From the NCBI RefSeq assembly GCF_003231495.1, contig NZ_PQWO01000013.1:136901-168900 (forward strand): a stretch of DNA of 32,000 nucleotides, written 5' to 3'. Both the position numbers and the translations under genes were made by a program. Origin of the DNA: Acaryochloris thomasi RCC1774. Its GTDB lineage: Bacteria > Cyanobacteriota > Cyanobacteriia > Thermosynechococcales > Thermosynechococcaceae. Position 1 is the first letter of the stretch. The number at the start of each line of letters is the position of its first letter. The notes under the pieces were generated by a model that saw only the letters and a list, made by a program, of their open reading frames with translations, was not told the origin of the DNA and did no database searches. This document shows positions 1-28,024 of this stretch, piece after piece.

Positions 1-915
1 AGCTGGCTAGTGATTTCAGCGACGCCATCACCGTCAGCGTCGACAGGTGTTTCTAGCGCGTCTCTGAGCAGGAAGTTATTTTTCCATGGACCTGCACCTT
101 CAGCGTATCGTTGACTGATCACCTGCAAAAATTCAGGGTTATCGAGGTCGCTGTAGAGCGTGTCCTCAGACAGCGGATTTTCAGCAGCATCAAGGAATTC
201 CTGGCCATAGATTTCCACTAGATTATTGCGCTGCTGCACATTAAAGCGGATATCAAAAGGCACCGAGAACGTCTCATCAGGATTTGCGCCATCGGTGGCA
301 TTTCCATAGAGCTGCACGAGGGGAATATCACCAAGATCTTCGGCATCCAGCATCGCTTGAAGTTCGATCAGGTTCTGAAATTCAAAGGATTGAATAAAGA
401 TCCGATTGGGGTCAGTAAAGCCAGTTTCTTGGAGTGTATCAATGAGTTTCTCCTCTAAAGAAAGTCCCTGGAGATCAAAGAAGGTAGGATGCTTTGTTTC
501 AGGGTAGATACCCACGGCTCGGCCAGTCTCAGCCTCAACTTCTTGAACTAGCTCAATAACTTCCTGGAACGTGGGAATTTCGAAGGCATCATTGAAATCT
601 TGAGAGCGGAAATTGCGGGACTGAACGGCACGAAGCTGCTTGATCTCAGCGAGGGTAAAATCCTCAGCGAAGTAAGCTGTTGTTTCAACGCCATCCAGAA
701 ACTTTGTAGACATCCGTTCAGAACCGAAGACCTCAGCGACGTTGGTGGTGTCGTCCAGGATCGGTTCATGACGGGCAATGAGAACACCGTCTTTGGTGCT
801 GACCAAATCTGGTTCGATGAAGTCTGCGCCTTGTGCGATCGCAACTCGATAAGCCTCAAGCGTATGCTCAGGCAAAACACCGCTAGCTCCCCGGTGACCA
901 ATCACAATGGGATCT
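1..915 (-). other. Glycerophosphodiester phosphodiesterase (GlpQ/UgpQ, GDPD) domain, truncated by the window edge
   Basis: PIVIGHRGASGVLPEHTLEAYRVAIAQGADFIEPDLVSTKDGVLIARHEP (translated by hand from 781-910) closely parallels the E. coli GlpQ N-terminal catalytic block HRGASGYLPEHT...GADYLEQDLVMTKD. Confidence 0.85.
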
Positions 916-3900
916 TGACTATTAAGCGTATTGAGTTCTACTGGATTGGGGGTCGGAATCGGGGCATCCAACAACGTCCCGTTCGCACCAAAGTGGAGCA
1001 GATAGGGACCAAACTCATCACCGACGTAGATGTCACCATTGCTGCCAATGACGAAGGATTCAATATCAAAGTCAGCCCCGGTGAGCAAACGCTCGGTCGT
1101 GTCTCCGTTTTGGATATCGAAGGGAATCAGGCCATTGGGATCGCTGAGCTGAATAAAATCTTCAATCTCAACACTGCCGTCGCCCCCTTCAGAACCGACA
1201 AAACTGGGGTCAGCCCTATAGAGTCTGAGAAGGTAATCAGCACTGTTTTCTTGAGCGCCGAAACCATTGTCAGACAAAAACCAGAAGCTGCCGTCTCTGT
1301 CAGCAAACTGAACACCACTAAAGCCCTGGACAGGCTGCCCTTCAAAAGGACCGGTGCGGCCATTAGCATCAATAGGGTTACCCTCACCGTCATCGTTTCC
1401 GGCAGGTGGCCCTTCAGCAAAGGTATCGGCAGGCAGGGAAGCAAAGCCAACCAACTCCGAGCTCGGCGCGTCGGGTGCCACTCCAAACAGCGTTTGATAT
1501 GCCACCCGATAAATATCAGTGTTGTCTGTCGTGGCTGGCAGTAGGTCTGCGTTTAGACCATAGGTTTTGGAGACAATCCCTCCGTTAACGTCAGAATCAG
1601 TAGCCCAGGCAACGCCAAACTCAAACGTATCGCCGTTCGCATCAGGAGCCCCAGTCACAAATGGTTCAAAGATATCAGTGCTGAAACCAGGCACGTCATT
1701 GCTACCGTCAACATCATCGACTTGGACCAGTGTGCCGTCGGCTTCATCACCAAAGGCAGCCAATTCGGCTTGAGTCCGAAGTGTTAGCCCAGAATCAGGC
1801 AGCTCTGGATCAAGTCCAAATCCATCAATAGGCACATCATCAACCTCTAGCCCCCCTGCGTCAGAATCTGCAGCCGTAATCACCAAGGTGTTGGGATCAG
1901 TATTATCAACAAAATCAAGAGCAACACCAATTGCCTCATCCGCACGCAGGGCTGCTTCAATGGTGCCGGCAGCATTGTTATCGTTACCAAAGTTGTCTGT
2001 TCCTTCTTCTTCCAAAGCTAAGAAGAAACCATCAGGATCGCGGTCTAGAATGGGCAGCGCCACCTGGAGCATCTCAGCAACAGTAGGTGGATTGGGATTT
2101 AGGGGCGGCTGACCGTAAAGGATTAAATCGCCATTCTCATCCACCAATCCATCTCGCCGCAGTTCGTCCTCAGAAAAGTCGTTATAGGTATCTTCAGCAG
2201 CAAAGATGCCTAACAGGCGATCGGTGGTAGTAGAATCAACGGCCAGCAGTTCCTCGCGGTCAAAAACAACTGTATAACCTGCTGCTTCAGCTTCTTCAAT
2301 CAGGTTGCGGCCGTCAGTACGCGTCCCTTCTTCGCCAAAAACACCAGTGGTTCCAACTGGCAGGTAATCGGTTTCACCGGCCCCAAGGATCACATCTGGT
2401 CGCTGATCCAAGATTTCAGCGGTAATTTCCTCCGTTTGGCCCCGATTGTCCACATCAGCCAGAAAGACGCCGGTTCCGGGTTCAGCAATAAAGCCAGAGT
2501 TAATGATACCGACTGCTTTTCCTGCGGCCTGGGCCTCTTGGGCAATGGTGGCATTCTGACCAGAGAGCGCAGTAATCTCTTGACCTCCTTCATCAACCGG
2601 CGCATCAAACCCAAAACTGCCCGAAAAGGGTTTAACACCGTAGGCGTGAACAACAGCCCCAGCGTTTGATGTAGAAACTAGACGATCTTCAATATGGCCT
2701 AGATAAACGCCCGCGTTACTCAACTGATCCCAATTCAGGCGACCATCAGTCCCTTTGGATGCAAGCCTTGCCGCCGCATAGTGGGAAGGACTGGTTCCGT
2801 CCGGATGAATGAAAATCACATTGCCAGTATCGGACGTCGGTTCTGGCGCTTCACGAGGCACGAGATCATCAGGCACGCCCTCTGGTGCATCTAAACGAAC
2901 ATCAAACAGACTCTCGTAGATTAATCGATAAATGGTTGTGTTATCGAGAGTTGCAGGTAGGCGCTCAGCCCCTTCCCCGTAAGCCTTAGAAACAATACTG
3001 CCCGCGAAGTCCGGTAGGCCTGCCCAAGCAACACCGAATTCATAGCTGTTGCCGTTGGCATCAGGAGCACTGACAAAGGGTGCGGTATCACTGCCAGTAG
3101 TCCCATCCAGCGGAACTGTAATACCGCTATCTTCTCCTGCTTCGTCCAACTGTGGCTGGGTGGTGGTGGTTCCCACCGTCGGACCGGAAACATCATCAAT
3201 CTCTAAAGCGCCTCCCGCACTGTCGGCAGCGGTGACGACAAAGGTATTAGAGTTGACGTTCTCAATAAAATCTCGGGCTACCCCAATAGCAGCATCGGCT
3301 CTTAAGGTGGCATCAATTGTGCCGCGGGCATTGTTATTGTTGCCGAAGTTGTCTGTGCCTTCTTCTTCGAGAACAATGAAAAAACCATCTTCTTCTTGAC
3401 TAAAGAGATCAAGATTGAGTGTTGCCTGCAGCATCTCGGCCACAGTGGGCGGATTGGGGTTAATGGGTGGCTGACCGTAGGTAATCAGTTCACCGTTTTC
3501 ATCGACAAGACCATCTTCAATGAGTTGTCCTTCGGGCACATCGTTGTAGGTATCATCGGCAGCAAACACACCCAAAACTCGCTCGGTATCTGCTGGAAGG
3601 CTTTCCAACTGCTCATGAGTGTAGACAACGGTGTAACCCAGTGCCTCTGCTTCTTCAATCAAGTTACGACCATCGGTGCGGGTCCCTTCTTGGCCGAAGA
3701 AACCAGTCGTTCCGATGGGTAAATAATCAATTTCACCCGCAGCCATGATTACGTTCACGCCAGATTCCAAAACCTGGGCGGTGATGCCCTCGCGATCGCT
3801 ACGGCTCTCAGCATCAGCCAGAAAAACACCCGTCCCAGGCTCAGCAACGAAACCTGAGTTAATGACGGCTGTCGGACGACCCGCAACAATGGCCTCTTCC

Positions 3901-4208
3901 AGCGCGGTTGCATTTGGAGCCGAACCAGCAACATTCTGCCCCTGTAAGGCAGCTAGAGACTGGTATTCATCACCATTTTCATCAAAGCCAAAGCTGGGAG
4001 CCACGGCCTTGATGCCGTAGGCGTGAACCACAGCGCCTGCATTAGACGTTGCCACAACCTGATCATCCAGATGCCCAAGATAGACACCAGCAGCAGGGGC
4101 TTCATCCCAATTCAAGCGACCATCGGGGCCCACTGATTCAAAACGGGCGGCTGCAAAGTGGGACGGGTCCGCACCATCTGGATGGATAAAAATGACATTA
4201 CTCGTCAT
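1..4208 (-). CDS. Giant multidomain exo-phosphoesterase, N-terminal 1402 aa only (gene runs off the left edge): 2 tandem alkaline-phosphatase-like domains + phytase-like domain + GlpQ-type glycerophosphodiester phosphodiesterase
   Basis: Absent from the ORF track because the frame never closes inside the window. Hand translation of the minus strand from ATG 4208-4206 gives MTSNVIFIHPDGADPSHFAAARFESVGPDGRLNWDEAPAAGVYLGHLDDQVVATSNAGAVVHAYGIK. The segments I translated (about 4020-4208, 3000-3400, 1441-1560, 780-910 and 1-60) are all in one open frame, ending ...RDALETPVDADGDGVAEITSQL at base 1 (4208 nt = 1402 codons + 2 nt). A GAGGTGA Shine-Dalgarno-like motif lies about 7 nt upstream of the ATG. 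The minus-strand ORFs listed in this span (548-901, 1127-1486, 2390-2653, 2921-3199) are all in a different frame. Confidence 0.93.
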   Translation of the reverse strand, partial: MTSNVIFIHPDGADPSHFAAARFESVGPDGRLNWDEAPAAGVYLGHLDDQVVATSNAGAVVHAYGIKAVAPSFGFDENGDEYQSLAALQGQNVAGSAPNATALEEAIVAGRPTAVINSGFVAEPGTGVFLADAESRSDREGITAQVLESGVNVIMAAGEIDYLPIGTTGFFGQEGTRTDGRNLIEEAEALGYTVVYTHEQLESLPADTERVLGVFAADDTYNDVPEGQLIEDGLVDENGELITYGQPPINPNPPTVAEMLQATLNLDLFSQEEDGFFIVLEEEGTDNFGNNNNARGTIDATLRADAAIGVARDFIENVNSNTFVVTAADSAGGALEIDDVSGPTVGTTTTQPQLDEAGEDSGITVPLDGTTGSDTAPFVSAPDANGNSYEFGVAWAGLPDFAGSIVSKAYGEGAERLPATLDNTTIYRLIYESLFDVRLDAPEGVPDDLVPREAPEPTSDTGNVIFIHPDGTSPSHYAAARLASKGTDGRLNWDQLSNAGVYLGHIEDRLVSTSNAGAVVHAYGVKPFSGSFGFDAPVDEGGQEITALSGQNATIAQEAQAAGKAVGIINSGFIAEPGTGVFLADVDNRGQTEEITAEILDQRPDVILGAGETDYLPVGTTGVFGEEGTRTDGRNLIEEAEAAGYTVVFDREELLAVDSTTTDRLLGIFAAEDTYNDFSEDELRRDGLVDENGDLILYGQPPLNPNPPTVAEMLQVALPILDRDPDGFFLALEEEGTDNFGNDNNAAGTIEAALRADEAIGVALDFVDNTDPNTLVITAADSDAGGLEVDDVPIDGFGLDPELPDSGLTLRTQAELAAFGDEADGTLVQVDDVDGSNDVPGFSTDIFEPFVTGAPDANGDTFEFGVAWATDSDVNGGIVSKTYGLNADLLPATTDNTDIYRVAYQTLFGVAPDAPSSELVGFASLPADTFAEGPPAGNDDGEGNPIDANGRTGPFEGQPVQGFSGVQFADRDGSFWFLSDNGFGAQENSADYLLRLYRADPSFVGSEGGDGSVEIEDFIQLSDPNGLIPFDIQNGDTTERLLTGADFDIESFVIGSNGDIYVGDEFGPYLLHFGANGTLLDAPIPTPNPVELNTLNSQDPIVIGHRGASGVLPEHTLEAYRVAIAQGADFIEPDLVSTKDGVLIARHEPILDDTTNVAEVFGSERMSTKFLDGVETTAYFAEDFTLAEIKQLRAVQSRNFRSQDFNDAFEIPTFQEVIELVQEVEAETGRAVGIYPETKHPTFFDLQGLSLEEKLIDTLQETGFTDPNRIFIQSFEFQNLIELQAMLDAEDLGDIPLVQLYGNATDGANPDETFSVPFDIRFNVQQRNNLVEIYGQEFLDAAENPLSEDTLYSDLDNPEFLQVISQRYAEGAGPWKNNFLLRDALETPVDADGDGVAEITSQ
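930..1480 (-). other. Phytase-like domain (esterase-like activity of phytase, PF13449-type)
   Basis: GQPVQGFSGVQFADRDGSFWFLSDNGFGAQENSADYLLRLY and DFDIESFVIGSNGDIYVGDEFGPYLLHFGANGTL, placed directly N-terminal of a GDPD domain as in many bacterial GDPD proteins. Recognised from memory of the family. Confidence 0.6.
1495..2830 (-). other. Alkaline-phosphatase-like domain 2 (tandem duplicate of domain 1)
   Basis: Same motif series: NVIFIHPDGTSPSHYAAAR, VSTSNAGAVVHAYGVK, PPTVAEMLQVALPIL, GFFLALEEEGTDNFGNDNNA, NTLVITAADSDAGG, GGIVSKTYGLNA. At DNA level the string ggctgaccgta occurs at 2107-2117 and 3469-3479, a 1362-bp (454-codon) register. Confidence 0.75.
2895..4208 (-). other. Alkaline-phosphatase-like domain 1 (PhoA/PF00245-like fold, non-canonical metal ligands)
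   Basis: By-eye colinearity with E. coli PhoA blocks: IFIHPDGA (D51 block), ATSNAGAVVHAYGIK (DSAASATA nucleophile block), PPTVAEMLQATLNL, DGFFIVLEEEGTDNFGNNNNA (EGxxIDxxxH block), NTFVVTAADSAGG (TADHAH block), GSIVSKAYGEGA. Borders approximate. Confidence 0.75.
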
Positions 4209-4506
4209 AGTCTTCACCTCAATCGGAGAACTAATACTCTGGGCTTATTACTAAAAGCGAAACGGACAACAGCTTTCCAAAATCACATTAAAAACTGCGA
4301 AAAGGCACTCTCAAGAGAAGAAAAAACAATATCTAAAACAAAAATTCCCAACTACATCAACTGCATCAAAGAAGAGAATCAATCATGAAATACGTGCTAA
4401 AAATGCTACGCAAAATCCAAACTCATTAAACAGGATCAAGAGATACGTAAAAATACAAGTACTCTCATATCCCTAATAAGCATAGTCTCACCATCACAGC
4501 GAAAAC

Positions 4507-4547
4507 AGGTTAAAGTCTAGTTCAAAAACCACTAAGATAAAATTAAA
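4507..4547 (-). promoter_or_regulatory. Candidate Pho box (SphR/PhoB site): four 8-bp units at exact 11-bp spacing
   Basis: Minus strand reads TTTAATTT(4547-4540) n3 CTTAGTGG(4536-4529) n3 TTGAACTA(4525-4518) n3 TTTAACCT(4514-4507). Units 1 and 4 match the cyanobacterial Pho-box unit PyTTAAPyPy(T/A) perfectly; units 2 and 3 carry core mismatches. It lies about 300-340 bp upstream of the ATG at 4208, in the gene's orientation. Confidence 0.35.
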
Positions 4548-4822
4548 TTCATAATGACACGTAGATGTATTCATAAAAACTATTTTTCATAAATTCTGTT
4601 TTTTAAGTATCTTCATTTATACAAAAAGCCATCATCTAAAAAAAGATAACGGATTTCAGCAAGAAGGAGAAATAGACTACATTTCTAGTTCGGTACACAA
4701 ATGAGTATTTATTTTTCATCTAATTTCTCTCAAGCTCAACCTCAGATTTCAGCTTAAACATCAGTTTTTTTTCTACCAACAACTCATAAGTGGTTGGCTA
4801 TTAAAACCAAGTTAGAGGCAAT

Positions 4823-4852
4823 CTACTGGAGAGCATGTTTGCTCTCCAGTAG
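4823..4852 (-). terminator. Perfect 13-bp stem / 4-nt loop hairpin, possible terminator of the 2439-aa gene
   Basis: ctactggagagca-tgtt-tgctctccagtag (4823-4835 / 4840-4852), the only strong GC-containing hairpin in the AT-rich spacer, about 350 nt downstream of the stop at 5200. No immediate U-tract on either strand. Confidence 0.35.
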
Positions 4853-5199
4853 CCTTCCGCAACAAATTAATATGCCAATCTTTCAGAGAATAATATTGCT
4901 ATATGCTTTATCAGGAGTAATAGTTAAATTAAATTCAGTGCTATGCAAAAACAGCCGATCATTTTCATTTAACTCAAGTCAAAAGGAATACTTTCATAAA
5001 AACCGACATCCACCTAATTGATCAGGCGAATTAACAACTACCTAAGGCCAGATGAATAAGAGTTTAAGAATTAGTTTCATCAAGCTGACACTAGAAGCAA
5101 TCACAAAGACTACTATTGAAATTTCATCAATTCAGACTTCTTAGAAATTCAGAAAGACATTGAGATAATACGCAGCACTGCTTCGAGGGCAGTTGACGA

Positions 5200-8100
5200 T
5201 TAAACTACGGATGAGAAGGTTTGAAAGGTCAAATCTTCTACCTCCGCAGCGACATTACTCAACACGGCAAGTTGCTGATTCTCCTCCTCAAAAACAATCA
5301 GGGTATTGCCGCCTTGAATGGAGACCCCGAGCTGATCAACGGTCAACCCATCCGATAGCCCCAGAGCATCTTGCCCCATCTCGAAGTCACGAATGAAATC
5401 TCGACCTTGACCGACTTCTAGAACAAACAGATCAGCGCCACGTCCTCCAGAGAGCAGATCACGGCCCGACCCGCCAATCAGCGTATCAGCCCCAAGGTTG
5501 CCTGCAATTTGGTCACGGTCTGCGCCTCCTGATAACAAGTCAGCTCCCCTGCCGCCAAGGATAAAATCGTTACCATTACCGCCCTCGATAACATCATCAC
5601 CGCGTCTGCCATCCAGTCGGTCAAAGCCGTTGCCGCCCAATAGAGTATCGTGGCCTGCTCCTCCTCGAATATTGTCGGAGCCATTATTGCCTAACAGGAA
5701 ATCATCACCCAACAGCCCTCGGATCACGTCGTTACCGTTCAGCCCCTCGATGGCATCTGATTCAGCAGTTCCGATCAGCACGTCGCTGAAGTTGGTGCCG
5801 GTAATCTCATTCACCTGAGGGGCATCGATCACCGTATCCTCACGGAAGTTGAGGTTCTGGATGCGAGTGTCTTCTGCTGGATCCGTTTCTGCGTCGCTGA
5901 AGGCAGGCGTCGTCGCATCATCGTCCGCCGGGAAGTTAGTGGCCAAGTACTCAGCAAGCACATCTTGCTCGGTGCCTGGATCGGCGAAGGTTGCAGCGCC
6001 AGCATCGGTCAATACATCAGGAAGATCAACACGATTAGCCTCTGGACCTGTGGGGAACGGATATCCGTCACCACCATCGGCAAGGAAATTCAGGGTCACA
6101 ATGCGGAAAGTGCGGCTGGTCTCGCCCACCAGCTCTCCGCCTTGAACCACGGTGTCGATATCGTTGCCGTCTGCATCTGTGATCGTAAGAGACTGTACTC
6201 TATCGCCAGGGTCAGCATCGGGATCGAAGCTAAATTGAACCCCAGAAATCTGAGAAAACTGACCGGGTGTAGCGCCTTCTTCAGTGGCCGCAACGCTGTG
6301 CTCAACTACCTCTAGTAGCTGATCAGCCGTCAAGGTCAGCAGCGTCAGGCTGTTGTTGAAGCGGAGAGAATTATCGATATCTAGCTGAGAAATTTGACCT
6401 TCTTCCTTGCCCGAAACAGGGTTAGCCTGTGGCGGTAACTCCTTACCGTCGGCGTCGATTTCGCCGATGGGTGCCCGAATCCCGCCGCCGTTCTTAAGAG
6501 AAAGAACAACGGTCTCGTCAAAGGCCTGTGCCGCTGCAAGGTTGGCATCGGCAGTCAAGTTTCCAATATTGGTCTCTTCGGTGCGGACGCTCTCTCGCCG
6601 ACCGTCGATAAAGACATCGGTTTGACCAAAGACGTTGCCGTCTTGCTCTGCTACGACATCCGAGACGGCATTGGTAAGCTGCTGAACTCCGGTGGCTTTT
6701 GTCGAAGATGCGATGGCCGAAGGCCGGCCTTCGGCCATCGCATCTTCGACACCCTCAGTCCCGTATACCTCATTGACCACCTCATCTGTGGTGGCATAGG
6801 CGCCACTCACCTCAGAATCAACGCTATCGGTAATCACGTTACCTTCAGCATCAAACTCTAAAACCAGACGACCCACATAGCTATATTCACCGTCTGTACT
6901 GACGATCAGCACAGGGTTGCCGTTGGCATCGGTGGTCTCAAAGGGATAGTCCCCATCAGCTACATCGCCGGGTCGGAGCGTATCTGTTGCATCGGCCAAG
7001 AGCGTATCGGAGCCGCCGGCAATAATCACATCCACACCGTCTAAAAGACCCGCTAACTCCTGCTCCAGTGCAATTTGCTGCAGGTGAGAGACCAAGACGA
7101 TCTTGTTGATGCCCAGGTCACGGAGGCGATCCACCTCGGGCTGTAGGGTCTCCGCTAGGGCCACCATGTTGTTCTCTTGGGGACCAATGACGGTTGTGCC
7201 CGTGGGTGAAGAAATACTGTCCAGAATCTGGGTGGTGGCACCAATGACGCCGATTTGTTCACCACCTTCGTCAATAATCGTCGAGGGAGCAATCTTCGGT
7301 ACTTCAGTCCCTGCAAGGGATTGCTCCGGCCCCGTGCGGAAGTCTGTATTCGTCAGGATCTCATTGGTGAACAGCTCACTAAGCACTTCATCACCGGAGA
7401 AATCAAGGTTTGCTGAGAGGTAAGGGAATAGAGCGCCGACATTGCGATCGTCTTCAAGACCTGGATCTCTGAAATCAGGCGCAATGATATCGGCCAGGGT
7501 ATCCGAACCGAGGTCAAATTCGTGGTTACCGATTGCTGAGGCATCGAAACCTATCAGGTTCATGATCGCGATATCGACTCGGCCACCGCCTTCGCGCAAA
7601 CCAGCGTAGAAATCTTCAATCGCATCGCCATCCACATCCGCCGGCAAGTTGAAGAGGCCGTTGTAGAGGTCGTTAAAGATGCCGCTATCTCGGAACGCAG
7701 CCTGATCGCCTGCGGCATTAAAGAAGGGACCGGCGAGATAGTTATCGCCTGCCGAAAGCGTGATGGAGTTCTCAAACTGATCTTCAAAATTATCAATGAG
7801 AGCCGCAAAATTGGGGGCGCGCCCAATGGCATCGACTCCCCCCTCTAAATCCGATGCATGGAGAATCTGCAGCGTGAAGTTACTGGCTGGTGCATCAGTG
7901 CCGATATTCAAGCGACTCACAAGAGGTTCGTGGTCACTGGCGACCACCGTATCGTTAAATTCAATTGCATTATCGTCACGGGTAAAGTCGTTATTAACGT
8001 GAACAATGTCAAATTTCGCCTCTGGGAGTAGCGAATCGCTGACAAACGAGTGGTCCAGGACCTGACTGTTGCCATCGAAAATGAAGGTTGAGGCATCTCC

Positions 8101-11100
8101 ACCGGCCTCAGCTTGGGAGACGAGGTTCGTCAAAACCTGCTCATCTCCGGTACCCGGCAGAATCTCAGCAAGGTCATTCGTGAACTGAAAGGTATTCAGA
8201 TCACCCGTCACAACGATATTGGCATCAGACTGCGCGGCCAACGCAGCATCAACATACTCGTTAATCGCCAGGGATTGAGCTTCCCGCTCTGCTTCAGCAG
8301 CTTGCACAAAGGGCTGAGTGCCACCAAAGATAGGGGTCGATCCAAACCGAGAGGAGAAATGATTATTAATGACCGTGACGGCCTCACCATTGAAGGAGAA
8401 GGTTCCTGCAAGAGGAATGCGGCTACCAGCGAGGGCGTCAGGATTGCTGACACCGGCTGATTCTAGATTGGCAGGTGTCAAAGCTTCGGTAGAGTCGAGC
8501 GAGACCCGTTCGGGGTTATAGAGGAAAGCATTGCGGATATTGCCGCCGGGAACGCCACCCTGTGGAATCGTACTTTCGTCGGCGCTGGAGTCGGCAAAGA
8601 CGTCAAAAAACTCGTAGGTGGGGCCGCCTGAAGTTGCGATCGCATCGACTAAATCCTGCAGAGTCTGAGAAGCGTCACTGACCGCAATGTTATCTCCTCC
8701 ACTTGCCCCATCGTTATCTTGGATTTCCTGGAGCGCAATAATGTCAGGTGAACCAAGATTAGCCACAATCTGCTCGGCCAGCAGCGATCGTTGTCGCGCA
8801 TCGGGATCGGTGACATCATCTTCCACCGCCGCTGTACTGGTCAAATTCAAGACGTTGTAGCTGGCAATCGTCAGCTGATCCTCGCTCCCCGTTAGCGTTG
8901 TGACTTCCTGCTCCAGGCCACCGGGGGTAACGACATTGACGGGTCCTGTCACATTAACCTCGAAGTTACCGAAGCTGTAACCGACCACTCCCGTTACATC
9001 TCCAAGCTGATCACCCACGTTTAAAGCCGGTGGTATCTCTTCTCCAGAAATTGTGGGATCAAACTGGATCTGAACCCGCTCTGGATTCTGATCGCCAGTA
9101 TTGTCAGGACCAGAGTTGAGGGGAATACCGCCCCGACTGTTGGGCGGATCGTCAGACGTTGCCCCCTGGTTAGGAAGCGTAAAGGCTTCTGCAGAGAAGT
9201 CACCAAAGACCCGCGTCGGTGAGACGGTGACCGCATCTTCAATCGTGACCCGCTGACCTTCAATACTTTCAAAGAAATCAATGGCATCATTTTCTGGATC
9301 AAAAGTATTCGCCGCATCGTCGGCTGTATCCCGTAGATTCACCGGCAGCTCATCGTCACTAATGACGGTTGTATTCGACGGTGACCGGCCACTCTGCCTA
9401 ATCACCACAGCTTCTGGCAAAGCATTACCACTGGAAAGAACCGTAATCTCAGAAGATGCAATCTGAGTAATGGAGAGGTTACCGGTATCGGCCCCACCTG
9501 GAATAAATTCGCCCACGGTGCCAGCAACCTCTAGCTGATCACCCACGGCAATGTCAGGGGTAGACCCAGTGAACACAAAAATGCCATCTGAAGTGTTGTC
9601 GTTGCCGTCGCCGGTGGGGTCTTGCAGGTAGAAACCATTGAAGGCCACTGCGGTCACAACACCACTCGTCGTCACATCGCTATCCACCAGCGTCGAGACA
9701 TGGCCCTCTCCCTGAATCGTGGAGATAGAGGTTAGGCCGTCACCATCGCCTAAATCATCAATCTCGAAAATCGTAGTACTCCCGCTGACTTCGTTACCGA
9801 CGACAAGTAAAGGAGAACCGTTGGGACTGTCTTCAGCAGAAATAAACAGCAATCCCTCAGGGCCAAGATCGCCTGCCGCAGGGTTCAGTGTGCCGTCGGG
9901 TAGCTCCACATCAACGGTGAAGTCACGATTGTTGATGTACTGAACAAACTCAGAGTTTGCCGGATCAGAGACATCGAACACCACAATGCCACCAATCCGC
10001 TCTAGACCGATAAAGGCGTAGGTGCGATCGCCCACAACGCCCACCGCGAGGCCTTCTGGCTCTGGCCCACTGTCATTGCTACGGCTATCAAAACTCCCAT
10101 TTTCATCATTATCGGAGTTGAAGGCTTCTGGAAGTAACTCTGCCGTAATCCGTTCGAGCTGGTCCCCGCTGTCAAACACTAAATTGCCCAAGGCATCGCG
10201 GATAGAAAAAGAACGGGAGCCAAAGGCAAATAGCTGATCGAAGTCGCCATCACCATCGATGTCCCCATCTACGCTGGAAACCTCTAGACGCCCCAAGTTC
10301 TCTTCGAGCTGGAGATTGGCAGCATCAGGAAACGCCTCTGGGTCGAGTGTCAAATCTTCGACACGCTCAATATCGGTGAGATCGTCAAAACTATCTCGTC
10401 CATCACCTTCGTTAGCTGTGATGAAGAAGGTCTGACCATTGGCATCAAAAGAAGCAATGGTGTCGGGCTGGAACAATCCAAAAACCGGAAAATTATCAAT
10501 ATTGATACCCCCATCTTCATCGCTAGGATCTAAGCCATTGGTGGCTTCATCGAAGCTGATTAGCCCCAGTTGAGTGGATGTGCCAGGGCCTTCATAGTCG
10601 TTGTCGTTAATGACGGCAAGGCGGCCATCCTCAAGGAGAGCCAAGCCTTCGGCTTGAGCACTAGGACTAAAACCAAGGGACGGTAAATTCGTGACTTGAA
10701 TCTTGTTAACAGGTTGAATGCCTGCTGCGACAAGTTCATCAGGGGAGAGCTGCTCTATTGTGGTGCCTTCAGTTGCGTTGGATAAATCGGTCCCCAGAAT
10801 ATTTGTGGCTCCCTGGAGGTCAATCTGAAAAATGCGTTGCTGGGCTGTATCGATGTCTTCGTTATCGCGTTCAATGACATAAAATTGTCCATTTCCTGCG
10901 AACACCACATCGCCAATGCGATCGACTTCAGCATCACCAAAGTCGATCCCAGAATCTGTGGTGATCAATGATGGCGTTTGCAGAACGTAGACAAATTCCT
11001 CCACTGGCTCTCCAGTCGTTGGATCAATGCCTAAAATCCGCAGGATGCTAGATCCGTTACTGGTGTCAGTATCGGGGTTAGAAAGTGGCGTTTGAATAAA

Positions 11101-12519
11101 GCCGTACACGATGTTGCGTTCATCATCAAAAGCGATGCCTTCGAACCCTCGGTTGTTGCGACGGTTCAAGTAAACTTCAGGGAGTGTTTCAGTCCCAAAC
11201 GTTCCGGCGGTCGCACCTGATTCGTCTTGGGCGGCAAAGCCAGTGGGCACAAATCGATCAATCAATACGCCTTCAGAGGAAAAGACATTGATAGAGGGTC
11301 CCTGTTCGTCAGCAACAAAGAGGTTACCGTTCGGGGCTCTGACAATGCCTTCGCTGTCTAGGCCAAAAGGGTCGTTGGGCAGTGGCTCACCTGTAGCCGG
11401 ATCAACGGGTACTTCAAAAAATCCTGGAATGTTTGGCAGTCCTGTGATGGGAACTTGGGCCCCGTCTACCTCACGGGTCAGGCCCAGGCGATCGACAACA
11501 GAAACCTGACCAGAGGCTTCATCTAACTCGAGTGTGAGGACGGTGACCTGAAGATCGGGAACCAAGAAAGGGCGATTGCTTGAATCAGGATCGGGCGTAT
11601 CAATCGTGCCACTAACGGGGCCACGATCATTAATAGCCAAGAACCGCGGATTACCGTTCTCTGGATTGACGCCATCGAAGGCGAGTCCCGACAGCCCACC
11701 TAGAAAAATGGGATTGCCATCAGCATCCGTTCCGATTTGAAAGGAGTCTGTTGTTAGGTCAGGAATATCAAAGGTTTCGAGCTGCGGCAATCCTCGACTA
11801 AAGTCTGTAACGCCCAGGGGTAGAATATCCACCAACTCGGCAGTTTCAAGATTGACCACTGCAATGGCATTGTTCTCTTGCAGCGTCACAAAGGCAGTGC
11901 TGCCATCGGGAGCGACAGAGATAAATTCAGGCTCTAAATCTTGAGCAACGGTGCGACCGGGGAAGATGCGAACACCGTCACCTCGCAAATCGTTCTCGCG
12001 TCCATTAAAGGCAGAGAAATCAGCCGTTGCTACGGTTGCACCCTCTACTCCCTCAGTTAGATCGATGATACTTATAGACCCTTCGGGATCGAAAGTCAGC
12101 AAATCATCGTCATCACCAACGGGTTCGCCCTCATTCGCCACTACTAGCCTGGTACCATTCGGCGTAAAGGTGACGGCGTCTGGCAAAACGCCGACTCCAA
12201 CGACATTCAAGAGGCTTAGGTCAGCTGCATCAAAGAAGGCAACCGTTCCAGTTTCGGTGGCTGTGACATCCTCTAGAGCGACAGCAACAACTCCATTGGC
12301 AACGGCAACGCTGTTAGGTCCACCGCTGAGGCTGACGTCAATCGCGTCAATGAGGGTCGGACGGGTTGGGTCTGAGAGATCAAGAACATCAATACCGTTA
12401 CTATCACCATTGACAACAAAGAGTCTTTGACTAACTGAGTCAAAGGCCACAATTTCAGCGGCGCTTTCATCGAAGACACCCGTCGCAAATGTACCAATTT
12501 GATTGAGTTCAATTGCCAT
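5200..12519 (-). CDS. Giant (2439 aa) RTX-type mosaic exoenzyme: split choice-of-anchor-I-like beta-propeller with nested phytase-like domain + ExeM/NucH-type EEP nuclease + UshA-type 5'-nucleotidase + RTX repeats
   Basis: ORF track 5200..12519. No signal peptide (MAIELNQIGTFATGVFDES...). Motifs read in the translation: AAEIVAFDSVSQRLFVVNGDSNGIDVLDLSDP, TFFITANEGDGRD, GPEPEGLAVG..TYAFIGLERIGGIVVFDVSDP (propeller); NRGFEGIAFD, AEGLALLEDGRLAVINDNDY (phytase-like); ISTIQGEGHVS..GVVTAVAFNGFYLQDP..TSDGIFVF (NucH N-module); IASYNVLNL, IIALQEIQDNDG, VINNHFSS, VTGDLNT, ASDHEPLV (EEP); ILHASDLEGG, SAGDNYLAG, GNHEFD, VLVSHLQ, KNGGGIR, LNFLADGGDGYPF (5'-nucleotidase); about 12 GGxGxDxUx units. By my reading the protein has no Cys, no Trp and only 8 Lys. 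Confidence 0.95.
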   Translation of the reverse strand: MAIELNQIGTFATGVFDESAAEIVAFDSVSQRLFVVNGDSNGIDVLDLSDPTRPTLIDAIDVSLSGGPNSVAVANGVVAVALEDVTATETGTVAFFDAADLSLLNVVGVGVLPDAVTFTPNGTRLVVANEGEPVGDDDDLLTFDPEGSISIIDLTEGVEGATVATADFSAFNGRENDLRGDGVRIFPGRTVAQDLEPEFISVAPDGSTAFVTLQENNAIAVVNLETAELVDILPLGVTDFSRGLPQLETFDIPDLTTDSFQIGTDADGNPIFLGGLSGLAFDGVNPENGNPRFLAINDRGPVSGTIDTPDPDSSNRPFLVPDLQVTVLTLELDEASGQVSVVDRLGLTREVDGAQVPITGLPNIPGFFEVPVDPATGEPLPNDPFGLDSEGIVRAPNGNLFVADEQGPSINVFSSEGVLIDRFVPTGFAAQDESGATAGTFGTETLPEVYLNRRNNRGFEGIAFDDERNIVYGFIQTPLSNPDTDTSNGSSILRILGIDPTTGEPVEEFVYVLQTPSLITTDSGIDFGDAEVDRIGDVVFAGNGQFYVIERDNEDIDTAQQRIFQIDLQGATNILGTDLSNATEGTTIEQLSPDELVAAGIQPVNKIQVTNLPSLGFSPSAQAEGLALLEDGRLAVINDNDYEGPGTSTQLGLISFDEATNGLDPSDEDGGINIDNFPVFGLFQPDTIASFDANGQTFFITANEGDGRDSFDDLTDIERVEDLTLDPEAFPDAANLQLEENLGRLEVSSVDGDIDGDGDFDQLFAFGSRSFSIRDALGNLVFDSGDQLERITAELLPEAFNSDNDENGSFDSRSNDSGPEPEGLAVGVVGDRTYAFIGLERIGGIVVFDVSDPANSEFVQYINNRDFTVDVELPDGTLNPAAGDLGPEGLLFISAEDSPNGSPLLVVGNEVSGSTTIFEIDDLGDGDGLTSISTIQGEGHVSTLVDSDVTTSGVVTAVAFNGFYLQDPTGDGNDNTSDGIFVFTGSTPDIAVGDQLEVAGTVGEFIPGGADTGNLSITQIASSEITVLSSGNALPEAVVIRQSGRSPSNTTVISDDELPVNLRDTADDAANTFDPENDAIDFFESIEGQRVTIEDAVTVSPTRVFGDFSAEAFTLPNQGATSDDPPNSRGGIPLNSGPDNTGDQNPERVQIQFDPTISGEEIPPALNVGDQLGDVTGVVGYSFGNFEVNVTGPVNVVTPGGLEQEVTTLTGSEDQLTIASYNVLNLTSTAAVEDDVTDPDARQRSLLAEQIVANLGSPDIIALQEIQDNDGASGGDNIAVSDASQTLQDLVDAIATSGGPTYEFFDVFADSSADESTIPQGGVPGGNIRNAFLYNPERVSLDSTEALTPANLESAGVSNPDALAGSRIPLAGTFSFNGEAVTVINNHFSSRFGSTPIFGGTQPFVQAAEAEREAQSLAINEYVDAALAAQSDANIVVTGDLNTFQFTNDLAEILPGTGDEQVLTNLVSQAEAGGDASTFIFDGNSQVLDHSFVSDSLLPEAKFDIVHVNNDFTRDDNAIEFNDTVVASDHEPLVSRLNIGTDAPASNFTLQILHASDLEGGVDAIGRAPNFAALIDNFEDQFENSITLSAGDNYLAGPFFNAAGDQAAFRDSGIFNDLYNGLFNLPADVDGDAIEDFYAGLREGGGRVDIAIMNLIGFDASAIGNHEFDLGSDTLADIIAPDFRDPGLEDDRNVGALFPYLSANLDFSGDEVLSELFTNEILTNTDFRTGPEQSLAGTEVPKIAPSTIIDEGGEQIGVIGATTQILDSISSPTGTTVIGPQENNMVALAETLQPEVDRLRDLGINKIVLVSHLQQIALEQELAGLLDGVDVIIAGGSDTLLADATDTLRPGDVADGDYPFETTDANGNPVLIVSTDGEYSYVGRLVLEFDAEGNVITDSVDSEVSGAYATTDEVVNEVYGTEGVEDAMAEGRPSAIASSTKATGVQQLTNAVSDVVAEQDGNVFGQTDVFIDGRRESVRTEETNIGNLTADANLAAAQAFDETVVLSLKNGGGIRAPIGEIDADGKELPPQANPVSGKEEGQISQLDIDNSLRFNNSLTLLTLTADQLLEVVEHSVAATEEGATPGQFSQISGVQFSFDPDADPGDRVQSLTITDADGNDIDTVVQGGELVGETSRTFRIVTLNFLADGGDGYPFPTGPEANRVDLPDVLTDAGAATFADPGTEQDVLAEYLATNFPADDDATTPAFSDAETDPAEDTRIQNLNFREDTVIDAPQVNEITGTNFSDVLIGTAESDAIEGLNGNDVIRGLLGDDFLLGNNGSDNIRGGAGHDTLLGGNGFDRLDGRRGDDVIEGGNGNDFILGGRGADLLSGGADRDQIAGNLGADTLIGGSGRDLLSGGRGADLFVLEVGQGRDFIRDFEMGQDALGLSDGLTVDQLGVSIQGGNTLIVFEEENQQLAVLSNVAAEVEDLTFQTFSSVV
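5418..5749 (-). repeat. About 12 tandem RTX (hemolysin-type Ca-binding) nonapeptide repeats, followed by a roughly 70-aa C-terminal tail
   Basis: EGLNGNDVIRGLLGDDFLLGNNGSDNIRGGAGHDTLLGGNGFDRLDGRRGDDVIEGGNGNDFILGGRGADLLSGGADRDQIAGNLGADTLIGGSGRDLLSGGRGADLFVLE. The 27-nt periodicity is visible in the DNA. The antisense ORF 5498-5818 shows the mirrored P/S-rich repeat. Confidence 0.9.
6040..7880 (-). other. UshA-type 5'-nucleotidase module (metallophosphoesterase + 5'-nucleotidase C-terminal domain)
   Basis: NFTLQILHASDLEGG at about 7841-7880; GNHEFD; VLVSHLQ; VDVIIAGGSDTLL at about 6990-7040; RIVTLNFLADGGDGYPFP at 6051-6105. Confidence 0.8.
7905..9735 (-). other. ExeM/NucH-type extracellular nuclease module (OB-like N-part + endonuclease/exonuclease/phosphatase domain from about 8876)
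   Basis: ISTIQGEGHVSTL at about 9690-9735; DQLTIASYNVLNLT at 8841-8880; ASDHEPLVSRLNIG at about 7900-7940 (all hand-located on the minus strand). The catalytic EEP residues appear intact (E in ALQEIQ, NH in NNHF, D-N in GDLNT, DH in SDHEP). Confidence 0.8.
9745..10539 (-). other. Beta-propeller, C-terminal half (choice-of-anchor-I-like)
   Basis: GLDPSDEDGGINIDNFPVFGLFQPDTIASF..FFITANEGDGRD..LFAFGSRSFSIRDALGNLVFDSGDQLE..SRSNDSGPEPEGLAVG..LERIGGIVVFDVSDPANSEFVQYINNRD. Confidence 0.6.
10540..11790 (-). other. Nested phytase-like (PF13449-type) domain inserted in the propeller
   Basis: About 417 aa between LGVTDFSRG and GLDPSDEDGGINIDNFPVFGLFQPD (the latter at about 10481-10536), containing LSGLAFDG, DSEGIVRAPNGNLFVADEQGP, NRGFEGIAFDDERNIVYGFIQTPL, DRIGDVVFAGNGQFYVIERDN, AEGLALLEDGRLAVINDNDY. 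Confidence 0.6.
11791..12519 (-). other. Beta-propeller, N-terminal half (choice-of-anchor-I-like)
   Basis: Ends at ...ILPLGVTDFSRG (hand-located at about 11791-11820). In family members as I remember them this motif is followed directly by GLDxSDxDG. Confidence 0.6.
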
Positions 12520-13159
12520 GGAAAACCTTTACCTATAGAAAAAGAAAAATTGAATTAACTGAATGCGCGATCAGATTCGCTTTTCCAACGCCGTTTTTCA
12601 GCACCGAACGGGAAAAGTTAAAACTAGACAACAACGTCCAAGTCAGAGACAGAGCAAGCTATCAGAAGCTCCAAACACTCCAGCAAAGAGACTCCTGCCG
12701 TCACAGAACCTTATTTCAGGCTCACGCTGCAGAGTGAGACTGAAGCAGGAAAGTAGAGAATCAGCGATTGCAGGCAAACAACCAGGAGGCTGATTAGAAA
12801 ACCTCAAAATATTTGTTAGTTCTTCAACTAATGAGCTGCAGCTAAATAAACGCTCAAGATTTACGCTGCTTAACACTCAGACTTGACCGCAGCCGAAATC
12901 CCCTTGATTAGATTCCCAAGGATATGTAAATACCAGGACAAGAAGAGATTAAGGCCAGCAGTATTTTCGTTTAAAGTTGGCTTAAGTCAGTCAATGCAAA
13001 GCTGAAAGTTCTGGGCAAGCAGCCTGAAGCAATCATGTTCAAAACGCAGCCGCCCCTAAATCTAAGCCATGCTTATTTTGACGGCGAAGCTGTCTAGCAA
13101 GAACAATTAGACCAGACAAGAGGGATGCAATAGAGAGTCTTTATGCTGAAATCTAAAAA

Positions 13160-13232
13160 TGGAGCTAAGCGGATTCGAACCGCTGACCCCCTGCATGCCA
13201 TGCAGGTGCTCTACCAACTGAGCTATAGCCCC
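13160..13232 (-). tRNA. tRNA-Ala (anticodon GGC)
   Basis: Reverse complement = GGGGCTATAGCTCAGTTGGTAGAGCACCTGCATGGCATGCAGGGGGTCAGCGGTTCGAATCCGCTTAGCTCCA (73 nt). It has a 7-bp acceptor stem with the G3:U70 alanine identity pair, D-arm GCTC/GAGC, anticodon stem CCTGC/GCAGG with loop ATGGCAT, T-arm AGCGG-TTCGAAT-CCGCT and discriminator A73. The 3' CCA is not encoded (TTTTT follows). Confidence 0.93.
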
Positions 13233-13441
13233 AAGGAATATTCATCATGCCTTGAAAGCTGACATGCCGTCAAGAATGTGTCTAATCCTCGCCCCTCTCA
13301 ACACAAACAATAGCTTTTGTAAACGATTTAGATAAGAAAAGCTAATAAGCTTCATCAAAACAACTGATGTTTTTGGCTATGATTGAGGCATCCAGATGCG
13401 GGTGATGCATCATCTGCATGTTGTCACTGAGGAAGCAAGCC

Positions 13442-18721: not shown

Positions 18722-19132
18722 TTATTGATTGAATCCCTTCCGATATTTCATCAGGCGCTTATGTTGCCGGGTTTCTGGTGATGAGATGTAGACAGGTTTA
18801 ATTTGTTCAAGTGCGGTCAGCTTGGCTAATTTGAGAGCATCATCCTTATCGGTTTTGCATTTTACATTCTTCCATTGCCAAGCATCTGCACTGGGATTGG
18901 CCACCAACACCGAATATCCCAGTTGCTGACACAAGTCGTGAATTTGACCACAAATCGTACCAGTCTCGAAGACAACTTTGTCGGGTTGAGTTTCATAGAG
19001 CAATTGCTAAAAAGCCAAGCGAAGAGTAGGTATGGCCTAGAACTGAGTTTGATTACTGTCGGTCTCAAAGAGGCAGGAAACGCTCTTTAATTTTCCTAAA
19101 TCAATTGCCAGAATCTTCATATAAACCTTCAT
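18722..19132 (-). pseudogene. Decayed IS110-family transposase gene (N-terminal DEDD domain fragment only)
   Basis: The minus strand from ATG 19132 or 19120 reads MKVYMKILAIDLGKLKSVSCLFETDSNQTQF*AIPTLRLAF*QLLYETQPDKVVFETGTICGQIHDLCQQLGYSVLVANP... It has two in-frame TAG stops (19039-19037 and 19009-19007). It ends after about 135 codons, whereas I recall intact IS110 transposases being several-fold longer. Confidence 0.8.
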
Positions 19133-19610: not shown

Positions 19611-20471
19611 CTACAGAACTTTTAGACTTTTCAAACTCTGTCGAGTCACTGCGGCTCTAGTACTCAGATCTGCCTCATCGCGAATGTTGATATTGGTAGC
19701 GAAGAAGTAAGTATTGTCATCTTGTTCCACATAGCCAACATACCAACCGATCTGGGATTCGGATGCCCAGCCGGTTTTGGCACGCATTGTATAGTCTGGG
19801 GTTCGCTCCACGATCATGATGTTTTTTACGGTTGCGATCGCATCATCTGAGAAGGGCAATTCATTTTTATGTAAGCGTCGCAGAAACTGAATTTGCTGGT
19901 GGGGCGTGATCCGTAAATCGCCCGTTAGCCAGAAGGTATCAATATCGTCTGCCTCTCCGATGGCTTGGTTGCCGTAGCCAACTTTAGCAATCCACTGCTG
20001 CATTCGTTCGTAGCCAATGCGACGAGCTAAGACCTGATAGAACCAGACTGCTGATACCTGAATAGCTGTCTGCATATTGAGATCTCGATTCCATGCTGGA
20101 ATACTCCGTTCTACTCCGTCCCAAGTCAAAATTGAGAGTTCGTTGTCAATCACCCCAGTTTCTAGAGCGATCAGCGAGTTTAGAACTTTAAAGGTGGAGG
20201 CGGGTAAAAAGGGGGTCACATTCCGCTCAGGGTTGTGCTGATAGGTGCGGTCTCGCTCCAGGTCATAGATTAAGATCGAGCCTTTCACACCCAAGTCTCG
20301 GAAATGCTGAGCAAAGTCAGGCTGTGTGAACTTGTTTTGCTGAGTCACCAAGGGTGCTGCAGATGCAAGAATGGACGAATCTAGGAAAGGTGACAGTGTG
20401 ATGCAAATGCTTGCGATCACACAGTTAAGCCCATAAAAGATATTTTTCATCTTGTCTTGTCTACGCTCCAT
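19611..20471 (-). CDS. Class D (OXA-type) beta-lactamase, secreted
   Basis: 286 aa (alternative start MKNIFYG at 20450). All class D boxes are present: STFK (ASTFKV hand-located at 20183-20200), SAV, YGN, KTG, WYVGY. It has a hydrophobic N-terminal signal-like segment. Confidence 0.88.
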   Translation of the reverse strand: MERRQDKMKNIFYGLNCVIASICITLSPFLDSSILASAAPLVTQQNKFTQPDFAQHFRDLGVKGSILIYDLERDRTYQHNPERNVTPFLPASTFKVLNSLIALETGVIDNELSILTWDGVERSIPAWNRDLNMQTAIQVSAVWFYQVLARRIGYERMQQWIAKVGYGNQAIGEADDIDTFWLTGDLRITPHQQIQFLRRLHKNELPFSDDAIATVKNIMIVERTPDYTMRAKTGWASESQIGWYVGYVEQDDNTYFFATNINIRDEADLSTRAAVTRQSLKSLKVL

Positions 20472-23895: not shown

Positions 23896-24115
23896 AGTGT
23901 TCCTTTCACAGAAACTTAGAACAGCGACACAAGCGAAGAGGTTGCTTTGAAGTGAGCAAGATATCTGAATTGGCTCCCTGAATTTCCCACCAGTGAGGGA
24001 CTTTGGGACTGGAGTCAATATAAGGAGCAGCCATATGGTTTAACGGAAGGGTGGACGGTCTCTCCCCCAATTCTGGAGGGAGACGGGGGGCGAATGCAGT
24101 GCTTTCTTGGAATCC

Positions 24116-24838: not shown

Positions 24839-24881
24839 AATAGCTTGATACCAATGGTGTACAAGGGATAAAACTAAGACA

Positions 24882-27993: not shown

Positions 27994-28024
27994 GGACAAC
28001 GATGTAAACAACCAGAGCATTTTA

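Follow-up and report, generated by a model that had tools for sequence, protein, structure and literature searches.

The stretch of DNA analysed here (hereafter the window) comprises 32,000 nucleotides (nt) of contig NZ_PQWO01000013.1 from the cyanobacterium Acaryochloris thomasi RCC1774. It contains a very large gene on the minus strand at positions 5200..12519, which is the subject of this report. The gene is a complete coding sequence of 2439 amino acids (aa) with an ATG start and its stop codon at 5200-5202. Since its open frame begins just 3 codons 5′ of the ATG, an N-terminal extension is impossible. The product matches the NCBI entry 'Trifunctional nucleotide phosphoesterase protein YfkN [Acaryochloris thomasi RCC1774]' with 100% identity. 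At E <= 1e-10 it has more than 1300 database matches, mostly from marine cyanobacteria and many with the same architecture. It is a member of a large and already annotated family, and acidic exoenzymes that lack Cys and carry repeats-in-toxin (RTX) sequences are textbook material.

Modules were assigned with Pfam and NCBIfam profiles, and curated cut-offs are quoted where given. The gene encodes, from the N-terminus to the C-terminus:

11704..12519, minus strand: residues 1-272, first part of a choice-of-anchor I (MSP130-like) beta-propeller (NF038117, 567.8 bits, exceeding the curated cut-off of 300)
10594..11703, minus strand: residues 273-642, 'Phytase-like' (PF13449) beta-propeller inserted in the first propeller (157 bits)
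9730..10593, minus strand: residues 643-930, second part of the choice-of-anchor I propeller (NF038117)
7885..9729, minus strand: residues 931-1545, ExeM/NucH-like extracellular nuclease module, in which an N-terminal accessory part precedes an endonuclease/exonuclease/phosphatase (EEP) catalytic domain
5830..7884, minus strand: residues 1546-2230, 5′-nucleotidase-family module, made of a metallophosphoesterase part and 5_nucleotid_C
5422..5772, minus strand: residues 2250-2366, 13 RTX nonapeptides (GGxGxDxUx), beta-roll
5203..5421, minus strand: residues 2367-2439, C-terminal cap (LEVGQGRDFIRDFEMGQDALGL) and putative uncleaved secretion signal

The domain mosaic read from the translation in an initial annotation is thus borne out, with a choice_anch_I domain split by the Phytase-like domain, an EEP nuclease, 5_nucleotid_C and HemolysinCabind (PF00353, Pfam E-value 3.8e-20, 5 stretches within residues 2235-2400). 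The deposited name YfkN is not supported by the corresponding profiles (129 bits against 2554 for NF006937 and 106 bits against 2801 for NF006935). Residues 1-930 are modelled by AlphaFold2 (AF2) as two beta-propellers with a mean predicted local distance difference test (pLDDT) score of 83.7. A fold search of the PDB with these N-terminal 930 aa returned generic beta-propeller matches only; we therefore give no activity to the 'Phytase-like' part, which carries that word as a family name. Choice-of-anchor I domains have been tied to MSP130 seven-bladed propellers with predicted Ca2+ sites (PMC11878542).

Both catalytic modules are recognizable, with peculiarities. The nuclease module scores 166 bits against NF033681, under the cut-off of 300, yet it spans positions 1-545 of the 546 in the model. 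PDB entry 9sf9 matches residues 932-1537 (E-value 4.9e-74), and the EEP motifs SYNVLN, LQEIQD, GDLN and SDHEP are all present. The 5′-nucleotidase module aligns with CD73 over about 400 residues; its 5_nucleotid_C domain (PF02872) scores 89 bits, and GNHEFD and the motif-IV His are kept. Pfam Metallophos has no match at E < 0.01 in the 2439-aa protein, and the complete dinuclear metal site of the UshA-CD73 family (D-x-H, GD, GNH(E/D), H, GxH) is not found. Two His metal ligands of CD73 are swapped: D-x-H in motif I has become SDLEG (residues ~1550-1560), and GGH in motif V (GGHSN in CD73) has become GGSDT (residues ~1835-1840). This D-L-E / GGSD replacement is conserved family-wide. Because both His ligands are replaced throughout the family, the metal site of this module may differ from the canonical one, possibly with harder oxygen-donor ligands.

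The two ends of the protein look like those of a type I secretion system (T1SS) substrate. The N-terminus, MAIELNQIGTFATGVFDES, has neither a basic n-region nor a hydrophobic core by a heuristic rule used in place of SignalP, and the choice-of-anchor I propeller starts at residue 1, which leaves no room for a signal peptide. At the other end, 13 consecutive RTX nonapeptides run in an exact 9-residue register from residue 2250 to residue 2366. Residues 2214-2439, modelled with AF2 from an alignment of 15 homologous tails, form a beta-roll with a 3-residue strand every 9 residues, closed by a small capping sheet (pLDDT 92). Foldseek matches this model best to CyaA RTX blocks, to T1SS lipases from Pseudomonas and Serratia, and to the serralysin/alkaline protease family. 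The last 60 aa contain no Lys, no Arg and no Pro and finish in a hydrophobic end (...TFQTFSSVV). A survey of RTX C-termini describes a signal region that is rich in D/L/T/V/F, poor in K/R/P and hydrophobic at its end (PMC8861453), and on these compositional grounds the last ~60 aa are a good candidate for such a signal. Acidic isoelectric points (pI) are the rule among RTX toxins, RTX surface-layer proteins are devoid of Cys, and RTX proteins are abundant in Acaryochloris (PMC3034196).

A different tail occurs elsewhere in the family. Seven leaderless Cys-free homologues (P0031, P0044, P0045, P0052, P0058, P0081 and P0093) have no C-terminal RTX block. Their C-termini share a conserved tail of the DUF4114 type (...DQDFNDITIKINSIA) that may be a different kind of signal for export or anchoring.

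Gene order around homologues bears on the exporter. The homologue P0013 (locus L082) has the same architecture and 55% identity at full coverage, and the C-terminal 75 aa of the A. thomasi protein align throughout with it. Located 93 nt downstream of P0013 are genes for a 585-aa ATP-binding cassette (ABC) protein of the PrtD type (TIGR01842, 754 bits, cut-off 510) and for a 446-aa adaptor (TIGR01843, 382 bits, cut-off 209). This linkage is the strongest support for type I secretion. At a second homologue, P0061 (locus L088), the gene of a 581-aa ABC exporter lies 110 nt downstream, assigned by Pfam (ABC_membrane + ABC_tran) and by its 59% tblastn identity to the L082 ABC protein. Because the linked homologue loci carry this type, the exporter to expect would be of the PrtD/AprD type and not of the HlyB type. 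A further candidate linkage, of P0040 to the T1SS ABC protein P0219, was rejected, since the apparently shared contig came down to two contigs of coinciding length.

Taken together, the view that the 2439-aa protein is a T1SS substrate is well supported, and its exporter is presumably encoded elsewhere in the genome. The initial annotation had come to the same conclusion from the composition of the protein together with its C-terminal repeats. The conclusion holds, chiefly on the RTX beta-roll, the absent leader and the linkage at P0013, and less on composition.

Several observations weigh against this reading. The L082 and L088 loci have a GC content of 61-63%, the L082 ABC protein is closest to alphaproteobacterial proteins (Kiloniellaceae, Pelagibius), and both loci are probably alphaproteobacterial; the linkage is therefore not shown in cyanobacteria. 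No HlyB/PrtD-type ABC gene and no TolC gene is present in the 32,000-nt window, and no T1SS ABC or adaptor gene was found within 10 kb in the window, in 3 other cyanobacterial homologue loci or in 80 mostly cyanobacterial loci around orthologues of the neighbouring giant gene. A tblastn search of 89 loci (1.5 Mb) with the L082 ABC protein and its membrane-fusion protein (MFP) found only L082 and L088. Searching with the L082 PrtD-type ABC protein returned proteobacterial-type relatives only, none of them named Acaryochloris, and a tblastn search of plasmids was no more informative.

The composition of the protein is extreme. The count given in the initial annotation (0 Cys, 0 Trp and 8 Lys in 2439 aa) is exact, and we found that Met (5, initiator included), His (10) and Tyr (24) are scarce as well. 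Using the 18 other open reading frames (ORFs) of the window as background (5101 aa; C 0.96%, W 1.35%, M 1.86%, H 1.82%, Y 2.76%, K 3.41%), the expected counts are C 23, W 33, M 45, H 44, Y 67 and K 83, and the depletion is significant at binomial P values from 6e-11 (C) to 1e-26 (K). Lys is lowered 10-fold and Arg just 1.6-fold (3.4% vs 5.6%), and Phe is raised (5.5% vs 4.2%). On the enriched side, Asp (264 residues, 10.8%), Asn (150) and Gly (265, 10.9%) exceed the background 2.2-, 2.3- and 1.5-fold, so that the very high D/E/G/T/N content claimed at first stands for Asp, Asn and Gly but was overstated for Glu (163) and Thr (182), which are merely 1.15-1.2 times the background. With a pI of 4.05 and a net charge (K+R-D-E) of -335, the protein is strongly acidic, as had been proposed.

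This bias is distributed across all four modules. The calculated A280(0.1%) is 0.14. On the Uversky charge-hydropathy scale all modules lie barely on the folded side (+0.016 to +0.046, vs +0.045 to +0.11 for ordinary proteins), values that are compatible with marginal folding dependent on counter-ions (cations) and are no evidence for disorder. We rejected a cause at the nucleotide level, since Asn (AAY) is enriched though Lys (AAR) is purged and GC content is ordinary, and likewise nitrogen saving, since Asn is enriched and Arg is kept. The bias is real and statistically overwhelming.

How much of this bias belongs to the export route can be read from the family. Among the 120 closest homologues, 108 are Cys-free; the 4 with a signal peptide contain 0-5 Cys (three of them 2-5), 9-31 Trp and 23-46 Met. 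For a broader comparison, an exhaustive search with residues 1-930 gave 150 diverse representatives, which include 59 proteins with a signal peptide and 26 leaderless proteins with at least 3 GGxGxD motifs. The median percentages over the homologous region only are:

Cys: signal-peptide group 0.20; leaderless RTX group 0.00; A. thomasi domain 0
Trp: signal-peptide group 0.53; leaderless RTX group 0.33; A. thomasi domain 0
Met: signal-peptide group 1.29; leaderless RTX group 0.55; A. thomasi domain 0.11
His: signal-peptide group 0.65; leaderless RTX group 0.33; A. thomasi domain 0
Tyr: signal-peptide group 3.48; leaderless RTX group 2.40; A. thomasi domain 0.75
Lys: signal-peptide group 2.54; leaderless RTX group 1.86; A. 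thomasi domain 0.11
Phe: signal-peptide group 4.56; leaderless RTX group 5.05; A. thomasi domain 6.34
Arg: signal-peptide group 3.23; leaderless RTX group 3.25; A. thomasi domain 3.66
Asp: signal-peptide group 9.2; leaderless RTX group 10.2; A. thomasi domain 11.18
Glu: signal-peptide group 5.9; leaderless RTX group 6.5; A. thomasi domain 6.99

In the leaderless RTX group, Cys, Trp, Met, His, Tyr and Lys are lower and Phe is higher than in the signal-peptide group (Mann-Whitney p values from 2e-3 to 3e-9), although signal peptides were called by a crude hydrophobicity/charge rule and the group statistics ignore phylogeny. The absence of Cys and the lower Met, Tyr, Trp, His and Lys thus track the leaderless RTX route. 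Arg, Asp and Glu do not differ between the groups, and acidity is therefore a trait of the domain family and not a mark of type I secretion. Of the compositional signature that the initial annotation regarded as classical for type I secretion, the lack of Cys tracks leaderless RTX export, but the acidity is the same in homologues exported through Sec.

Even among RTX homologues the A. thomasi protein is unusual. The summed content of Lys, Met, Trp, Tyr, His and Cys is 1.93%, the second lowest of 94 leaderless RTX homologues (median 4.21%), compared to 12.2% for ordinary window proteins. Given the RTX-family medians, 29 Lys would be expected instead of 8 (P = 3e-6). Other RTX homologues reach 3.6% Lys and 0.67% Trp, which indicates that a chain free of Lys and Trp is not needed for this export route. 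In an alignment with 23 full-length homologues, 14 of the 18 columns with a Lys majority are changed in the A. thomasi protein, mainly to Gln (9) and to Arg (2). Phe occupies 13 of the 35 conserved Tyr columns, all 3 conserved Trp are lost, and Met to Ile/Leu changes are also seen. Conversely, 9 of its 10 His and 4 of its 8 Lys fall at family-invariant columns, so that these residues are retained almost solely where the family never varies. The organism does not impose this bias on every exported protein, since two Sec-exported proteins of the window have ordinary Lys contents (3.8% in an OXA-type beta-lactamase homologue, which also has 7 Trp, and 3.7% in DevB).

Leaderless RTX exoenzymes share a graded syndrome in which Phe and Gln take over from Met, Tyr, Trp, His and Lys, and the A. 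thomasi protein has carried it close to the functional minimum. The signature is thus partly a family trait, partly a correlate of type I secretion and partly an excess over both.

Economy is the first alternative to consider. Under this explanation, the bias reflects the domain family plus the thrift expected of proteins that are lost to the environment, in which cheap residues (Gly, Asp, Asn, Ala, Ser, Thr) take the place of costly ones (Trp, Tyr, His, Met, Lys), and the RTX tail is incidental. Homologues with signal peptides are indeed already acidic and poor in Cys, Trp, His and Lys relative to ordinary proteins (D 9.2%, C 0.20%, W 0.53%, H 0.65%, K 2.5%). The mean synthetic cost of the A. 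thomasi protein is 20.3 high-energy phosphate bonds (~P) per residue, compared to 22-26 for 17 of the 18 other window proteins (DevB, 20.1), in agreement with the known economy of extracellular proteins (PMC2932507). Nevertheless, enrichment is seen for Phe, the second most expensive residue, in exchange for equally costly Tyr, and Lys falls 10-fold against a 1.6-fold fall of Arg, which costs about as much. In the same domain, moreover, depletion is significantly stronger in leaderless RTX proteins than in the Sec group, and the A. thomasi protein lies far under even the RTX-family medians for Lys. The enrichment of Phe, the equal-cost exchange of Tyr for Phe and the disparity between Lys and Arg indicate that economy contributes but cannot explain the whole bias, and as a full explanation we consider it rather unlikely.

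A second alternative is chemical robustness. The side chains that react most readily with singlet oxygen are those of Cys, Met, Trp, Tyr and His, and those that react most readily with hypochlorous and hypobromous acid (HOCl/HOBr) are those of Met, Cys, His, Trp and Lys, followed by Tyr; Arg, Phe and Gln are poorly reactive toward these agents. By this ranking, the depleted set matches the most reactive residues. Losing Cys, Met, His, Trp, Lys and Tyr while sparing Arg and Phe could then harden a long-lived exoenzyme against photo-oxidation, singlet oxygen, ultraviolet-B light, hypohalous acids from haloperoxidases in algal biofilms, and glycation, and would not be a requirement of secretion. 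The weak calculated absorbance, the Tyr to Phe, Lys to Gln and Met to Ile/Leu substitutions, and the bias surpassing the RTX norm would all fit. So would the covariation of Lys with Tyr (rho 0.55) and with Trp (rho 0.35), but not with Arg, among the 94 RTX homologues. In the same homologues, however, Lys drops as Asp and Glu rise (rho -0.33 and -0.40), a trend that is compatible with a charge or halophile-like shift and is explained equally well by it. Furthermore, Smith and Chapman found for E. coli that oxidation-prone residues explain little of extracellular composition. As an account that replaces the secretion requirement, such hardening seems to us improbable. The more specific idea that the purge is a selected 'damage-proof' design for very large exoenzymes that have to last long in sunlit, oxidant-rich seawater or biofilm, and not a by-product of type I secretion or economy, is likewise improbable, if slightly less so. 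If true, it would set apart a recognizable class of marine exoproteins by composition and show how to design oxidation-resistant enzymes.

The remaining alternative, release by another route, brings in a set of genes 11-15 kb away from the gene:

27406-28020, minus strand: TetR regulator
26130-27440, minus strand: DevB membrane-fusion protein (TIGR02971, 315 bits)
24882-26051, minus strand: DevC (TIGR01185, 505 bits)
23194-24018, minus strand: DevA (TIGR02982, 360 bits)

DevBCA is a MacB-type tripartite exporter, and MacB-type pumps take their substrates from the periplasm or the membrane. The statement in the initial annotation that the window has no HlyB-type ABC, MFP or TolC gene needs to be amended accordingly: neither a HlyB/PrtD-type ABC nor a TolC is present, but an MFP is, namely DevB, though not one of a protein T1SS. 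An ORF of the DUF4336 family (24116-24934, minus strand) separates devC from devA, sharing 53 nt with the end of devC.

The protein might leave through a DevBCA-type exporter or a two-step pathway, or it might remain cell-associated, in which case the RTX block would serve only for Ca2+-dependent folding or anchoring. Such a fate would agree with the nearby DevBCA exporter and its regulator, with the lack of linked T1SS genes in every cyanobacterial locus examined and with the occurrence, by definition, of choice-of-anchor I domains together with many different surface anchors, but is very improbable, as the uptake side of MacB-type pumps makes DevBCA an unlikely route for a leaderless 255-kDa protein that has no signal peptide to reach the periplasm, and as the C-terminal module is that of T1SS lipases and proteases and of the T1SS-linked homologue P0013.

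The neighbourhood of the gene offers a functional context. The features concerned are:

3..4208, minus strand: second giant gene, at least 1402 aa, which runs off the left end of the window and encodes two alkaline phosphatase domains, a Phytase-like domain and a glycerophosphodiester phosphodiesterase (GDPD) domain
12924..12953, minus strand: Pho-box-like array CTTAATCTcttCTTGTCCTggtATTTACAT, three 8-bp units in 11-bp phase, ~400 nt upstream of the ATG of the 2439-aa gene (19/24)
4495..4547, minus strand: Pho-box-like array of 4-5 units upstream of the second giant gene (p = 0.07 vs shuffles)
5040-5079: further Pho-box-like array

The second giant lies downstream of the nuclease gene on the same strand after a 955-bp spacer. 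Its product is leaderless and shows a milder form of the same bias (C 0, W 0.43%, M 0.43%, K 0.86%). The orthologue in A. marina (L009:10013-15658) has 1881 aa with RTX repeats at its end, and 12 out of 12 orthologues examined are Cys-free and leaderless. In E. coli, the alkaline phosphatase fold depends on periplasmic disulfides. At the A. marina MBIC11017 locus (L009), the RTX phosphatase orthologue adjoins znuABC-type zinc uptake genes (4665-7544) and a CobW-family metallochaperone gene (2296-3333), a neighbourhood that may be relevant to metal loading of the phosphatase.

The spacer between the two giants (4245-5199, 955 bp) is ORF-free and AT-rich (GC about 0.33) and holds terminator-like hairpins on the minus strand (5031-5008 and 4652-4629) together with Pho-box-like arrays. 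We searched for at least 3 tandem 8-bp Pho boxes with 3-bp linkers, using dinucleotide shuffles of the same AT-rich regions as the null. The positions upstream of the two giant genes account for 6 of the 7 best Pho-box-like positions in the window, and such arrays also occur upstream of homologues in 4 of 7 other loci. Speaking against their significance, the arrays do not individually stand out from the shuffles (p 0.05-0.16; p = 0.11 for 12924-12953), and a window-wide enrichment that was strong at first largely dissolved against this null. The phoA-nucH operon of Synechocystis PCC 6803 is activated by SphR (PMC1906773). By analogy, Pho (SphR) control of the two giant genes is plausible.

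Considering all of the above, we propose that the protein is likely a leaderless, Cys-free, polyanionic multi-enzyme, consisting of a double propeller, an EEP nuclease, a phosphoesterase and an RTX roll with cap and signal, that is exported by a T1SS for phosphate release. An unlinked T1SS, most likely made of a PrtD/AprD-type ABC protein, an HlyD-family adaptor and a TolC-like channel, would recognize the C-terminus. As is established for T1SS substrates, the unfolded chain would pass to the outside in a single step and so avoid the periplasm with its disulfide machinery; the absence of Cys fits an export route without Dsb. Once outside, the RTX block and the very acidic passenger domains would fold upon Ca2+ binding. 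The enzyme could then work with the adjacent RTX alkaline-phosphatase/GDPD giant to free phosphate from DNA, nucleotides and phosphoesters, and this joint action would probably be under Pho (SphR) control, as suggested by the phoA-nucH precedent.

Other features of the window are recorded here for completeness. A tRNA-Ala(GGC) gene (13159-13233, minus strand) lies ~640 nt upstream of the 2439-aa gene on the same strand. The OXA-type (class D) beta-lactamase homologue mentioned above (19611-20471, minus strand; NF012161, 295 bits, cut-off 250) has a signal peptide and an S-T-F-K motif and adjoins an IS110 transposase fragment (18722-19003). At 28151-28489, minus strand, lies a truncated DDE transposase fragment (PF13701). 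The two transposase fragments point to past mobile-element activity in the region.

The two very large leaderless multi-enzymes, of which the first has an RTX tail and the second has one in its full-length orthologues, look like an extracellular arm of phosphorus scavenging in a marine cyanobacterium. Because the same domain occurs behind Sec signals and in front of RTX tails, the family provides a natural experiment on what a T1SS requires of its passengers. The A. thomasi protein is near the extreme of the trend and is a useful start for testing the contributions of secretion, economy and chemical robustness, and for the engineering of T1SS cargo.

Finally, we compared the protein with known systems. 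The closest parallel for its export is found in the RTX exoenzymes of PrtD/AprD-type T1SS, such as serralysin/alkaline protease and the Pseudomonas and Serratia lipases, which are likewise leaderless, acidic and Cys-free and close, at the C-terminus, with a nonapeptide beta-roll, a cap and an uncleaved signal, in accord with the fold match of the tail. The A. thomasi protein is, however, 5 times larger, carries three or four catalytic or propeller modules per chain, is far more depleted in Lys, Trp, Met and Tyr, and has its exporter unlinked in the window.

For its nuclease, the parallel is ExeM/NucH and the phoA-nucH operon of Synechocystis PCC 6803 (sll0654-sll0656), with an EEP nuclease that likewise carries an accessory domain and a nuclease gene that adjoins an alkaline phosphatase gene. 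The likeness extends to Pho-box-like arrays upstream, with the reservation that those arrays are non-significant against shuffles. Unlike ExeM/NucH, the A. thomasi nuclease scores under the NF033681 cut-off (166 vs 300 bits) and is fused to propellers, a 5′-nucleotidase module and an RTX tail. Compared to phoA-nucH, the nuclease gene comes first and the phosphatase gene follows after a 955-bp spacer, and Pho regulation is suggested by analogy.

The 5′-nucleotidase module shares 5_nucleotid_C, GNHEFD and the motif-IV His with UshA, CD73 and B. subtilis YfkN but differs from them by D-L-E and GGSD and by its distance from the YfkN profile (NF006937, 129 vs 2554 bits). In the same way, the choice-of-anchor I domain departs from other choice-of-anchor I/MSP130 propeller proteins: it is leaderless and RTX-tailed in place of a Sec signal and a surface anchor, and its propeller is interrupted by a second propeller.

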